From Enterobacteria phage IME177: a DNA stretch of 39,224 bases. The notes below the pieces were generated by a model that worked only from the letters and a program-made list of their open reading frames with translations, searched no databases and was not told the DNA's origin. The DNA lies in sequence record MZ398247.1; one strand, 5' to 3'. Below are positions 4,388-20,312 of this stretch, piece after piece. The translations under genes were made by a program, and so were the position numbers. How positions within the stretch are numbered: position 1 is the first letter of the stretch; every line of letters starts with the position of its first letter.

Positions 4388-4437
4388 TAGACTCAAGGTC
4401 ATTACTGTATGTAGTGGCCTTTATGGTTAACACTAAC
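4388..4437 (+). promoter_or_regulatory. conserved hairpin element, candidate RNase III processing site (copy 1 of 3)
   Basis: tagactcaaggtcattactgtatgtagtggcctttatggttaacactaac; AAGGUCA pairs with UGGCCUU; near-identical copies at 12871-12920 and 20265-20312. Confidence 0.5.
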
Positions 4438-4484
4438 TAGTGGAGGCGACTCTACGTGAAATCTGATAAACCGGGAGGGCAACT

Positions 4485-4919
4485 ATGCTCGAATTTTTAA
4501 AGAGAGCGGCTCCGTGGCTACTTGCAGCAGTGATGTTTGCTGGTGGCTACCACACCGCTAACAATAAGTGGGAGGCTAAAGTAAATGAAGAATACATCAC
4601 GAAACTTGAGGCACGAGAGAGTCAACGAACTGCTATCCAAGCACGAGTCGATGAAGTCTCAGCGGAGTGGCAGGACAAGATGTCCTCGCTGGAAGGCTCT
4701 ACTGATAGGATTATTAATGACCTTAACCGCGATAACAAGCGGCTGCTCGTCAAAGTCAAGACCTCAGGTCTCAGCGAGCCAGATTACAGTCGATGCTTCC
4801 CTAATGGTAGAGTCGAACTACACCCAGAAACTTCTAAAAGTCTTATCCGAATAACGCAAGAAGCTGACCTTAAGGAGAAAGCTCTACAGGAAACCATAAG
4901 GAGGTTGCGTGGCGAATAA
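4485..4919 (+). CDS. gp18.5: Rz-like i-spanin (gp18.5-like)
   Basis: 144 aa, N-terminal TM segment then coiled-coil-like charged sequence; Rz1-like ORF embedded in +1 frame; T7 gp18.5 position. Confidence 0.8.
4585..4854 (+). CDS. gp18.7: Rz1-like o-spanin lipoprotein embedded in the i-spanin gene (gp18.7-like); true start may be internal
   Basis: +1 frame ORF inside 4485-4919; ...[23 protein letters not shown] contains a lipobox (ITSGC) and resembles T7 gp18.7 as recalled. Confidence 0.6.
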   Translation: MKNTSRNLRHERVNELLSKHESMKSQRSGRTRCPRWKALLIGLLMTLTAITSGCSSKSRPQVSASQITVDASLMVESNYTQKLLKVLSE

Positions 4920-6678
4920 GAAAACACCTGCTGAAAGACAGGCAGAAATGACCCAAAGGATGAGGGATGACTTCGTGTTCTTCATCTTCGTTCTATGGAA
5001 AGCTCTGAGCCTTCCTGTTCCAACACGCTGCCAGATAGATATGTGTAAGAAGCTGGCGGCTGGAGATAATCGACGCTTCATCCTTCAAGCATTCCGTGGT
5101 ATTGGAAAGTCGTTCCTGACCTGTGGTTTCGTGGTCTGGAAGTTATGGAATAACCCGGACTTGAAGTTCATGATTGTGTCGGCCTCAAAGGAACGAGCTG
5201 ATGCTAACTCCATATTCATCAAGCGAATCATCGACCTCATGCCTCAGCTTCAGGAACTCAAACCTAAGCAAGGGCAGCGAGATGCGGTTATCAGCTTCGA
5301 CGTTGGACCAGCCAAGCCAGACCACTCACCTTCGGTTAAGTCCGTTGGTATCACTGGTCAGTTGACTGGTAGTCGTGCTGACATCCTGATTGCCGATGAC
5401 GTGGAGGTTCCAAACAACTCAGCGACTCAGGCTGCACGAGACCGCCTGTCAGAGCTTGTGAAAGAGTTCGACGCTATCCTGAAGCCGGGAGGTACAATCA
5501 TTTATCTGGGTACTCCTCAGAACGAGATGACCCTGTACCGTGAGTTGGAAGGTCGTGGGTACACCACTACTATCTGGCCTGCTCGTTATCCACGAGACAG
5601 AAAGGACTGGCAGTCTTACGGCGACCGTCTGGCACCGATGCTTCAGGCAGAGCTGGAAGAGGACCCTGAGTCCTTCTACTGGCGTCCGACCGATGAAGTA
5701 CGATTTGATGATACGGACCTGAAGGAACGTGAGCTGTCCTATGGTAAAGCTGGCTTCGCTCTACAGTTCATGCTTAACCCTAACCTGAGTGATGCTGAGA
5801 AGTACCCTCTGAAGCTCCGTGACCTTATCGTAGCCGACTTGGACCCAGCGTCTAGCCCAATGGTATACCAATGGCTTCCTAACCCTCAGAACAAGCGTGA
5901 GGACGTTCCTAACGTTGGACTCATGGGTGACTCATACCACACGTATCAGACTGTAGGTTCTGCCTTCAGTTCGTACACCCAGAAGATTCTGGTCATTGAC
6001 CCTAGTGGTCGTGGTAAAGATGAAACTGGTTATGCGGTACTGTCCCAGCTCAACGGCTACATCTTCGCTATGGAAGTTGGCGGTATGCGAGGTGGCTATG
6101 AAGACTCTACGCTGGAAGCCTTGGCTAAGATTGGTCGTAAGTGGAAGGTCAACGAATACGTCATTGAGGGTAACTTCGGTGATGGTATGTACCTTGAGCT
6201 ATTCAAGCCTGTAGCTTCCCGTATTCATCCTGCTGCTGTAACTGAAGTGAAGAGTAAGGGTCAGAAGGAACTCCGCATCTGTGACGTTCTGGAGCCTATC
6301 ATGGGGTCTCACCGACTTATCGTCAACGCTTCTGCTATCGTCCAAGACTACCAGACAGCCTCTGACAAGGATGGTGTGCGTAACCCTATCTACTCTCTCT
6401 TCTATCAGATGACCCGTATCTCTCGTGAACGTGGAGCACTGGCACACGATGACCGACTTGATGCGCTGGCTATCGGTGTACAGTTCTTCGTTGAGTCTAT
6501 GGCTAAGGATGCCAACAAAGGCGAACGTGAAGTCACTGAGGAGTGGCTGGAGGAACAGATGGAGAACCCACGGAAAGGCTTCGAGTCCATCCACACTGAG
6601 TTCTGGGACAATGGGGTCCGGGTAACTCACGATACGGACGACGAGCTGGGGCTAGGGTCCTACGTTACGTTCCACTAG
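4909..6678 (+). CDS. gp19: terminase large subunit (gp19-like), probable GTG start
   Basis: 589 aa; RBS ataaggagg; ...[13 protein letters not shown]..., [40 protein letters not shown] colinear with T7 gp19 as recalled. Confidence 0.93.
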
Positions 6679-6772
6679 CTGAGTGAATAACTATGGGTGA
6701 AAGCTGCATGAATACGCAGTTAGTAACCTATAGTTACTACCAGTCTAACCTACTGTTTTATAAGGAGTTTAG

Positions 6773-6795
6773 ACTTAACTATCACTATAGGGAAG
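6773..6795 (+). promoter_or_regulatory. phage RNA polymerase promoter (phiOR-like), predicted +1 at 6790
   Basis: acttaactatcactatagggaag downstream of the large terminase gene, the position of T7 phiOR. Confidence 0.8.
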
Positions 6796-6854
6796 ACCCC
6801 CGGTTACTTATAGTATTACTGTAGTGAATATACATATGCAGACTTTATGCAAGA

Positions 6855-6931
6855 CCTTAGGAGGCAGACTCCGAGTTCTTACCTAAGGCTTGCACCGATG
6901 GAAGGAGGGTGATATTAATCATAATCCCTCC
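6855..6931 (+). promoter_or_regulatory. two hairpins downstream of phiOR-like promoter (7-bp IR ccttagg/cctaagg; 6-bp IR ggaggg/ccctcc around a palindromic AT-rich loop)
   Basis: Inverted repeats 6855-6861/6882-6888 and 6904-6909/6926-6931 read directly from the sequence; region corresponds to the T7 right-end packaging/junction region. Confidence 0.4.
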
Positions 6932-18316: not shown

Positions 18317-18334
18317 ACTATCACCTTAGGGATG
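18312..18334 (+). promoter_or_regulatory. variant phage promoter (phi4-like), TCACCTTAGG core, predicted +1 at 18329
   Basis: cctaaactatcaccttagggatg; followed by hairpin gggacaataagtcctgtccc (18335-18354) and ttt. Confidence 0.5.
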
Positions 18335-18384
18335 GGACAATAAGTCCTGTCCCTTTGTTCGCATTCGTGATTAAGGAGTGACCA

Positions 18385-20085
18385 ATGTCATACGATGACC
18401 AAGACGACGAGAGTGTCTTTCTGTATCACACCCAGTGTCCAGACTGTGGGTCCTCGGATGCCAATGGTGTTTACTCAGATGGGCACATGTACTGCTTCGC
18501 CTGTGACCCTTCAGTCGCATGGAAGAAAGGAGACATGGAGTTGACCGAGGGATACACACCCTCAGGAGGTAGAAAGCAAGTGAGCAATCTGTTAACGTTC
18601 GGTGAGAACGCTGGACGATACGTCCCACTACCAGCCCGTAGTCTAAGCATGGAGATATGCAAGAAGTACAGCTACTGGGTGGGTAACATGGGTGGCAAGA
18701 TGGTTCAGGTCGCTGATTATTACGACAGGTCCGGGACCAAGGTAGGGCAGAAAGTCCGAGACGCTGAGAAGAACTTCACGGCTATAGGTAGCGTCAAGTC
18801 TGACATGCTGTTCGGCTCTCAGCTCTGGAACGGTGGTAAGAAGATAGTCATCACCGAGGGCGAGATAGACGCTCTGTCTGTGGCTCAGGTGCAGGACGGT
18901 AAGTATCCGGTTGTATCTCTTCCGTTAGGCTCCAAGTCTGCGAAGAAAGCTATGGCTGCGAACCTTGAGTATCTCGACCAGTTCGAAGAGATAATCTTGA
19001 TGTTCGACATGGATGAACCGGGTCGTCAGGCCATTGAGGATGCAGCACCAGTCTTACCAGCAGGTCGGGTTAAGGTTGCGTTCATCAACGGATATAAAGA
19101 CGCAAACGCTGCACTTCAAGCAAAGGACTTCAAGGCCATCACCGATGCTATCTGGAACGCTAAACCTTTCGTCCCGGCTGGTGTGGTATCAGCGGCAAGT
19201 CTGAAGGACCGCACACGAGAGGCAATGCTTAAGGCAGAGACTGAAGGTCTCATGTTCTCGTCATGCACAACACTTAACGCGATGACCCTCGGTGCGCGAG
19301 CTGGTGAGCTTATCATGGTGACTTCAGGGTCCGGCATGGGTAAGTCTACCTTCGTCCGTCAGCTACTCTTAGAGTGGGGCAGGGGTGGTAAGCGTGTGGG
19401 TATGGCTATGCTTGAAGAGGCTGTAGAGGAAACAGTTCAAGACCTTATGGGTCTGGACAATAACGTCCGTCTACGCCAGAGCAAGGAACTGAAGCAAGCC
19501 ATCTTAGAGGATGGACGGTTCGACGAATGGTATGACAAGCTGTTCGGGGACGATAAGTTCCACCTGTACGATTCATTCGCTGAGTCGGAAGAAGACACCT
19601 TGTTCGCTAAGTTGTCCTACATGGTGGATGGTCTCGACTGTGACGTAATACTGCTTGATCACATCTCAATCGTTGTGTCGGGCATGGAAGATAACTCAGA
19701 TGAACGTAAGACCATTGACCGCATCATGACTCGTCTCAAGAAGTTTGCGAAGACGAAGGGCGTGGTTGTCGTGGTCATATGTCACCTGAAGAACCCAGAG
19801 AAAGGTAAATCGCATGAAGAAGGACGACCTGTTTCAATCACTGACCTACGTGGTTCTGGTGCTCTACGCCAACTGTCTGATACTATCATCGCACTTGAAC
19901 GTAACCAGCAAGGTGATACTCCTAACGTTGTCCAGCTTCGTCTACTCAAGTGTCGCTTTACAGGTGATACTGGGGTGGCTGGACACCTCGAATACAACAA
20001 GACGACCGGGTGGCTTGAACCGATTAGCTTCACTGGTAGCAGCGGAGAAGAGGATAGCGGCTCGTGGGAAGATACCGACTTCTAA
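18385..20085 (+). CDS. gp4: DNA primase/helicase (gp4-like)
   Basis: 566 aa; N-terminal Cys4 zinc ribbon (CPDCGSS...CFAC), Walker A GSGMGKST, ...[31 protein letters not shown] colinear with T7 gp4 as recalled. Confidence 0.97.
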
Positions 20086-20096
20086 GGAGGAGTACA

Positions 20097-20261
20097 TTGC
20101 TAAGAAAACTTAAAGCTCGCTACCATCGGTTCATGTACAAATGGTGGAGTGATGAAGCAACCTGCCTGTCCAACATTCTGGGAGACCAGAGGTTCGACTC
20201 TAAGGCATGGAAGAAAGCTAACCGGAAGTTTATGTATCACTTCTTGCGTACAGACTTCTAG
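20097..20261 (+). CDS. small basic protein; start uncertain (TTG 20097 after aggagg, or ATG 20133)
   Basis: In-frame with track ORF 20064-20261; RBS aggagg at 20085-20090. Confidence 0.35.
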   Translation: MLRKLKARYHRFMYKWWSDEATCLSNILGDQRFDSKAWKKANRKFMYHFLRTDF

Positions 20262-20264
20262 GTC

Positions 20265-20312
20265 TAGACTCAAGGTCATTCACATCGAGTGGCCTTTATG
20301 ATTAGACTAAAC
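20265..20312 (+). promoter_or_regulatory. conserved hairpin element, candidate RNase III processing site (copy 3 of 3)
   Basis: tagactcaaggtcattcacatcgagtggcctttatgattagactaaac; 15 nt upstream of the DNA polymerase start. Confidence 0.5.

Follow-up and report, generated by a model that had tools for sequence, protein, structure and literature searches.

The three hairpin elements of phage IME177

The DNA of Enterobacteria phage IME177 (sequence record MZ398247.1; 39,224 nt, referred to here in its whole length as the window) represents a Kayfunavirus genome in circularly permuted form; the phage is K1F/EcoDS1-like and belongs to the T7 group (Studiervirinae). Three copies of a conserved hairpin element lie between its genes, and these had been proposed from the letters alone (the original prediction) to be RNase III sites. 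In this study, the sequence, fold, covariation and placement of the copies were analyzed by computation. Together with two sites in the early region, the three elements very probably belong to the RNase III processing-signal family of the T7 group. The five sites are as follows, with the scores of a covariance model (model R1) that is described below.

4379-4441, plus strand: copy 1, R18.5-type signal between genes 18 and 18.5 (63.9 bits, E 2.5e-15)
12862-12924, plus strand: copy 2, R1.1-type signal directly after a phi1.1-like promoter (64.0 bits)
20256-20316, plus strand: copy 3, R4.7-type signal directly before gene 5 (64.4 bits)
8818-8880, plus strand: fourth site, R0.5-type, early region (53.1 bits; sequence in the model seed)
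8078-8145, plus strand: probable fifth site, R0.3-type and diverged, just upstream of an ocr-like gene 0.3 (18.9 bits, E about 0.017; outside the seed)

The sequence TAGACTCAAGGTCAT has exactly three zero-mismatch matches in the window, at 4388, 12871 and 20265, all on the plus strand, and the gapped pattern AAGGTCA-N(8-16)-TGGCCTY was likewise matched three times (0.00 matches expected from 100 dinucleotide-preserving shuffles). All three copies are intergenic and carry the exact core ACUCAAGGUC ... GUGGCCUU-YAUGAU. Copy 1 sits between the open reading frames (ORFs) of gene 18 (4120-4383) and gene 18.5 (4485-4919), copy 2 begins 2 nt past a phage-promoter match at 12852-12869, and the end of copy 3 is 15 nt upstream of the gene 5 ORF (20327-22498). 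The positions and sequences given by the original prediction are correct, and the contexts that it named (after gene 18, after a phi1.1-like promoter and before gene 5) agree with the ORF map and the promoter matches. The element is longer than the figure of about 50 nt given there and includes a lower stem that differs among the copies. The pairing that it proposed between AAGGUCA and UGGCCUU forms 7 bp, including one U.G pair, and in RNA folds this helix extends to 10-12 bp.

Each copy adopts the same three-part fold in minimum-free-energy and centroid predictions, with a lower stem of 6-8 bp, an internal loop and an upper stem of 10-12 bp. The internal loop has GACUC on its 5' side and YAUGRU on its 3' side, and the upper stem opens with AAGGUC/GGCCUU. 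The lower stems differ from copy to copy yet stay complementary (GUGUUA/UAACAC, GGAUUA/UAACCC and GGUCUA/UAGACU in copies 1, 2 and 3). The fold energies of copies 1-3 are -23.4, -20.2 and -20.7 kcal/mol, corresponding to z values of -3.6, -4.1 and -2.5.

In the R18.5-type signal at 4379-4441, the lower stem is formed by 4383-4389/4428-4434, the internal loop by 4390-4394 (GACUC) and 4422-4427 (UAUGGU), and the upper stem by 4395-4405/4411-4421, which encloses a loop at 4406-4410. This region aligns at the DNA level to T7 36818-36931, which contains R18.5, and the UAUGG variant found in copy 1 is common to the R18.5 sites of T7 and T3. The R4.7-type signal at 20256-20316 has a lower stem at 20261-20266/20303-20308 and an upper stem at 20272-20281/20287-20296.

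The R1.1-type signal at 12862-12924 overlaps the start of a transcript, as the inferred +1 of the adjacent promoter (12852-12869) is G12867; gene 1.1 starts at 12943. Its lower stem (12865-12872/12911-12918) contains an A.C mismatch at 12869/12914, and its upper stem is formed by 12878-12889/12893-12904. Homologues that directly follow phage promoters, such as those at L006 2110-2169 and L012 91-150, have an A.C mismatch at the same lower-stem position. The lower stems after promoters read GGAUUA/UAACCC in copy 2 and GGAACAU/AUGUCCC elsewhere, with a 3' strand of CCC as if facing GGG, whereas the promoter starts with GGA. The mismatch may reflect a conflict between the constraints on promoter and helix, or it may be a tolerated A+.C pair.

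A stable, GC-containing hairpin that lies in an intergenic position between transcription units, as each copy does, could also be a transcription terminator or a pause site for the host or phage RNA polymerase. This is exceedingly improbable for the three copies. The terminator scans, which detect the early terminator TE at 14459-14486, call none of them, and the stem is followed by YAUGRUUA rather than by a U-tract. If copy 2, which is 0-60 nt past a promoter start, were a terminator, genes 1.1-1.3 would be silenced. Furthermore, the homologues in T7 and T3 are processing sites, and both of those genomes have separate annotated TE and Tphi terminators.

Covariation and relatives in the T7 group

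A pattern scan of IMG/VR gave 120 loci. The full motif, of which the downstream YAUGRW is a part, was present in about 76 distinct instances; about 45 loci lacked this downstream part and were excluded as chance matches on unrelated contigs, mostly in apparent coding regions. Alignment A1 comprised 34 sequences from the window, T7, EcoDS1 and IMG/VR. In A1, the paired cells amount to 94.6%, and compensatory changes are seen in 11 of 17 pairs, among them all eight of the lower stem; none of 500 shuffles reached the observed level, and slid controls were 26-52% paired. As the collection pattern was exact, covariation at the base of the upper stem can be only partly assessed in A1, a limit that is eased by alignment A2 (122 matches in 58 sources, 103 distinct sequences). 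In A2, 94.1% of cells are paired and compensatory changes occur in 15 of 17 pairs, with none of 500 shuffles equal to this and 26-48% of cells paired in slid controls.

The internal loop is near-invariant in A2 (A13, C14, U15 and C16 facing A72, U73, G74 and A75), and its conservation exceeds that of most helix positions. Conservation of the loop bases ACUC/YAUGAU and of the upper-stem base with its U.G pair is 90-100%, both in the 103 distinct homologues and in about 700 phage records whose hosts belong to several enterobacterial genera. This conservation appears to be stricter than the published in vitro requirements of RNase III. A second, undescribed constraint on the elements is conceivable, though rather unlikely; candidates are a phage or host factor that recognizes the loop, a part played by the elements in fixing the single-cut geometry and the 3'-end structure for some purpose other than exonuclease protection, and a trade-off with palindrome-sensing defences such as DdmABC/Lamassu.

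Model R1 was built from A1, and the window was scanned with filters off. Window matches with E below 1 are all on the plus strand, and no minus-strand match has E below 8. The original prediction counted three elements, which is correct for exact copies; it is an undercount of the class, since the model adds 8818-8880 and 8078-8145. In T7, model R1 recovers eight of ten sites, namely the five seed sites and the non-seed sites R6.5 (40 bits), R1 and R1.3, and nothing else has E below 1. In T3, there are eight matches with E below 0.01, all of which are annotated RNase III recognition sites (eight of the ten) and none of which is on the minus strand. The covariance models of Rfam 15 gave no match at gathering score anywhere in the window.

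The T7 sequence was extracted for motif comparison at the cleavage coordinates reported by Dunn and Studier in 1983. The T7 GenBank and RefSeq records, as displayed, contain no RNase III features, and the T3 record AJ318471 was therefore used as the annotated reference. The T7 sites R0.5, R1.1, R4.7 and R18.5 carry the motif ACUCAAGGUC...GUGGCCUUYAU^GAU, where the caret marks the cut (T7 R0.5 reads tgatagactcaaggtcgctcctagcgagtggcctttat^gattatcac), and R0.3, R1 and R1.3 carry it more loosely. These four T7 sites share with the window copies the core ACUCAAGGUC-apex-GUGGCCUUYAUGAU, the architecture and the fold, as well as the strand and the map positions (after gene 18, after phi1.1 and before the gene 4.7/5 block). 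They differ from the copies in the sequences of the apical stem, loop and lower stem, and TAGACTC, present in all three window copies, is replaced in T7 by (A/T/C)ACTC variants. The window lacks a gene 4.7, so that gene 5 directly follows its R4.7-type site; it also has no R1.3 equivalent because gene 1.2 abuts the ligase gene.

The T3 record contains ten stem-loops (R0.3 to R18.5) that bear the label "RNase III recognition site" and have the same motif. Genes 18 and 18.5 flank R18.5, R1.1 (6003-6053) takes in the end of phi1.1 (5984-6006) and R4.7 (12970-13018) lies just ahead of gene 5 (13043); the window copies occupy the same three places. The correspondence with T7 R18.5, R1.1 and R4.7 that had been claimed for the copies is supported by the T3 annotation, and the T7 sites agree likewise. 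T3 R0.5 shares the GUGUUA/UAACA lower stem of copy 1. T3 belongs to another genus, Teetrevirus, with a different promoter specificity and different apical sequences.

Within the Kayfunavirus group, the orthologues differ by few substitutions, some of which are compensatory changes in the apical stem. The K1F sequence at the R18.5 position is 98.6% identical over 71 nt to the region of copy 1. In EcoDS1, model R1 matches four syntenic places (1488-1549, 6046-6108, 13039-13099 and 35934-35996); the R1.1 layout is that of the window, with an annotated promoter at 6034-6056 and the model match at 6046-6108, and the R4.7 orthologue at 13039-13099 is ahead of gp5 at 13108. An example of the compensatory substitutions in the apical stem is provided by two related IMG/VR contigs (L010 and L082), which carry GCUGAC..CAGU in place of the AUGACU..GUCGU of the window. 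About 700 phage records, with Klebsiella, Escherichia, Salmonella, Yersinia and others as hosts, were matched by a 71-nt query taken around copy 1.

The EcoDS1 record has a coding sequence of 'unknown product' at 1493-1636 that overlaps the R0.5-type site at 1488-1549, and many GenBank records, numerous Klebsiella phages among them, have a 'hypothetical protein' annotated under the match to the 71-nt query. Some protein-coding calls over these hairpins are probably spurious.

The identity among the three copies, 15/15 and 8/8 positions in two blocks, might be read as a sign of recent intragenomic duplication, in which case the copies would be neutral repeats that are similar through youth and not through function. 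This reading is hardly credible. Only the internal loop and the upper-stem base are identical, whereas the apical stem, loop and lower stem vary and covary. Moreover, the blocks are kept at syntenic positions in T7, T3, EcoDS1, K1F and the roughly 700 phage records from many host genera, and copy 1 has the position-specific UAUGG variant of the T7 and T3 R18.5 sites. The identity between copies had been called unusual by the original prediction; it is instead a hallmark of the family.

The strand on which the structure forms bears on whether the elements act as RNA. The reverse complements fold to -12.5, -17.6 and -10.8 kcal/mol, more weakly than the sense strands, because the helices contain U.G pairs, and the conserved U.G pairs of A2 would be A.C on the opposite strand. 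This strand dependence, together with the all-plus orientation, indicates that the structure belongs to the sense RNA. A role at the level of DNA, in which a palindrome or cruciform would be a protein-binding site, part of an origin or a recombination linker and the RNA hairpin would be incidental, is very unlikely. Such a role would accord with reports that T7 R1.1 lies within a cloned primary-origin fragment and that the palindromes of T7-type RNase III sites, as DNA and in both orientations, set off the DdmABC (Lamassu) defence (PMC11707656), and copy 2 is at the equivalent spot beside the phi1.1 promoter. However, the helices need conserved U.G pairs that exist on the plus strand only, the reverse complements fold far more weakly, all copies are oriented with transcription, and copies 1 and 3 are distant from any origin-like region. 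The related idea that the elements are mosaic junctions or recombination linkers was rejected, as none of the elements marks a BLAST homology breakpoint against EcoDS1 or K1F; the sole nearby indel boundary is at the promoter (12851).

Gene map, early-region sites and further hairpins

A 4-kb segment of the window matches Escherichia Kayfunavirus phages, the best match being vB_EcoP-R1 (94% identity). The gene order, read from the ORF map and PHROG matches, is of the T7 type and circularly permuted. The features used here are the following.

1293-3824: long ORF at the gene 17 position
3929-4123: gene 17.5
4120-4383: gene 18
4485-4919: gene 18.5
4909-6678: gene 19
8174-8677: ocr-like gene 0.3 in the early region (PHROG match to the ocr-like family)
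9622-12303: ORF at the position of the EcoDS1/K1F RNA polymerase gene
12943-13122: gene 1.1
13126-13374: gene 1.2
14459-14486: early terminator TE (terminator scans)
18329-18365: R3.8-like hairpin directly after a promoter match at 18314-18331
20327-22498: gene 5, DNA polymerase, with its ATG at 20327
24686-24802: R6.5-like long-range hairpin with a phi6.5-like promoter (24745-24762) within its loop of about 66 nt
33095-33144: R13-like hairpin, a perfect 12-bp inverted repeat AAGGGCCUAUAG/CUAUAGGCCCUU around a phi13-like promoter (33114-33131)

There are 11 matches to the phage-promoter consensus TAAACTATCACTATAGGR, every one on the plus strand. The DNA ligase gene (1.3) is broken up, with one ORF at 13374-13928 (184 amino acids) and a second, in another frame, at 14117-14449 (110 amino acids). 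Both match ligase PHROGs, and the EcoDS1 counterpart is a single gene of 365 amino acids. A frameshifted pseudogene and a sequencing error are both plausible explanations, because the T7 ligase is dispensable. In the early region from 8174 to 9524, no protein kinase resembling gp0.7 was recognized from ORF sizes and PHROG matches; the ORFs scanned were the ocr-like gene 0.3 and two small ORFs of unknown function, with a 50-amino-acid ORF at 8674-8826 outside the scan.

The window holds at least four sites of the R1.1 class, and probably five. The fourth, at 8818-8880, folds to -25.9 kcal/mol (z -4.7) with a lower stem GAGUGAUAA/UUAUCACUU and an upper stem GAGGUCAUCUG/UAGGUGGCCUC; its lower stem GAGUGAUA...UUAUCAC is identical to that of T7 R0.5. 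The sequence at 8078-8145 has the same two-stem architecture (-25.6 kcal/mol, z -2.85) and is probably a diverged R0.3-type fifth site; R0.3 precedes gene 0.3 in both T3 and T7.

The hairpins at 24686-24802, 33095-33144 and 18329-18365 form another structural class, which lacks the AAGGUC/GGCCUU core and is not detected by model R1. They are analogues of R6.5, R13 and R3.8 of T7 and T3, in which a promoter lies inside or beside the hairpin; in the T3 record, the R6.5 and R13 stem-loops enclose the promoters phi6.5 and phi13. The R6.5-like structure is built of a lower stem AGUCUA/UAGACU and an 11-bp upper stem AUAGUCAUAUC/GAUAUGACUAU, which are separated by a 4x4 internal loop (-33.3 kcal/mol, z -3.6). 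In the R13-like structure (-21.5 kcal/mol, z -3.15), the inferred +1 of the promoter is G33129, so that the hairpin would form only in read-through RNA from upstream, and transcripts started at the promoter would hold the 3' arm alone. The R3.8-like hairpin, which a simple scan flagged as terminator-like, is followed by CCCUUUGUUCGCAUU, the string around the R3.8 cut of T7 (cccuuug^uucgcauu), and is probably the equivalent of R3.8 ahead of gene 4.

Approximate motif matches at 7701, 10011, 14007 (minus strand), 17172, 24570 (minus), 26282 (minus) and 31355 (minus) were rejected, as model R1 detects none of the seven; the folds at 7701 and 17172 are no better than those of shuffles (z = +0.18 and -0.35). 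Two partial copies were also observed. One, at 9548-9600 after a promoter at 9532 ahead of gene 1, contains the 5' half-motif GGACUCAAGGUCU without a GUGGCCUU partner (fold z = -0.6), and the other, at 17172-17203, reads UAGACUUAAGGUUAG...GGUGGCCUAAAGG at the start of an ORF (17155-17628). Neither is found by model R1 or has a fold better than those of shuffles, and they may be decayed sites (e.g. a former R1) or chance matches.

Predicted processing and its meaning for Kayfunavirus

In T7, RNase III cuts the early precursor RNA at five sites during transcription and also processes late RNAs. T7 R1.1, a hairpin of 60 nt whose internal loop is 4/5 nt, has one primary cut in vivo and in vitro, yielding 47-nt and 13-nt products (PMC6121014, PMC4858673). 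A substrate of RNase III spans about two helical turns, internal loops confine cleavage to one phosphodiester, and the 3' hairpin that remains guards against 3'-to-5' exonucleases (PMC1540722). On this model, the following course of events is predicted for the window phage. All genes would be read in the left-to-right direction as parts of long polycistronic RNAs; the host polymerase would make the early transcripts and the phage polymerase the later ones. Each nascent element would fold into a variable lower stem of 6-8 bp, a near-invariant asymmetric loop (ACUC/YAUGAU) and an upper stem of 10-12 bp, which starts with AAGGUC/GGCCUU and holds a conserved U.G pair; the whole would span about two helical turns, the usual size of an Escherichia coli RNase III substrate. 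The internal loop is expected to admit one strand to the catalytic site and therefore to allow a single cut, on the 3' side of the loop. By analogy with the T7 cut at UAU^GAU, cleavage would fall at 4424^4425, 12907^12908 and 20299^20300 in the three copies and at 8863^8864 in the fourth site.

Such cleavage would give the upstream messages (gene 18; gene 1 with its small neighbours; gene 4) a 3' end in the upper-stem hairpin, which would block 3'-to-5' exonucleases. The downstream messages (genes 18.5-19, 1.1-1.3 and 5) would begin with a short unstructured leader, of 60 nt to the start codon of gene 18.5, 35 nt to that of gene 1.1 and 27 nt to that of gene 5. In copy 2, the 5' strand of the lower stem consists of the first bases of the promoter transcript (from G12867), and transcripts of the phage polymerase would therefore lose a 41-nt 5' hairpin.

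The stricter conservation of the internal-loop sequence than of the helices might point to binding without cleavage, in which RNase III or another factor would be held by the elements as translational operators or as protective 5' or 3' structures. Chelladurai et al., in 1991, reportedly found that the conserved sequence element of these signals is dispensable for accurate cleavage in vitro, which would count in the same direction. Binding without cleavage is nevertheless highly improbable, because the reactive core, that is the loop and the base of the upper stem, matches that of T7 R1.1, R0.5 and R4.7, which are cut in vivo (PMC6121014; PMC4858673). In addition, the downstream Shine-Dalgarno sequences fall outside the folded structures.

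The assignment of the elements as RNase III processing signals is thus preferred, and several points weigh against it. A literature search found no cleavage or end-mapping data for this phage or any Kayfunavirus, and no paper was found that links RNase III with Kayfunavirus. Cleavage, cut position and effects on stability and translation would follow by homology with T7; the stabilizing and translational effects in particular are extrapolated, and in T7 they vary from site to site. The T7 cut positions used are absent from the displayed T7 records, although they do fit the sequences and the T3 annotation. The K1F and EcoDS1 records annotate no such sites. Most homologues were gathered by an exact upper-stem-base pattern, and A2 was fitted to the model. 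Finally, the gp0.7 kinase of T7 phosphorylates RNase III and raises its activity (PMC4858673); T7-style stimulation may be absent here, as no such kinase is recognizable, and the phage would then differ from T7 in relying on unmodified host RNase III. The proposal that the elements process and stabilize mRNA is accordingly sustained in its first part, by the motif, the architecture, the model and the T7/T3 positions, whereas the stabilizing role finds no support in the window and derives from the T7 literature (PMC1540722).

Conceptually, the sites are further examples of a long-known type and are not novel. The RNase III sites of T7 entered the textbooks in the 1970s and 1980s. As the sites are unannotated in K1F and EcoDS1 and have no Rfam match, their practical value lies in annotation. 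They are possible portable parts for mRNA stabilization or processing and potential triggers of hairpin-sensing defences (PMC11707656). For Kayfunavirus, a group used in K1-capsule phage therapy work, such sites would define the real mRNA ends and expression units.

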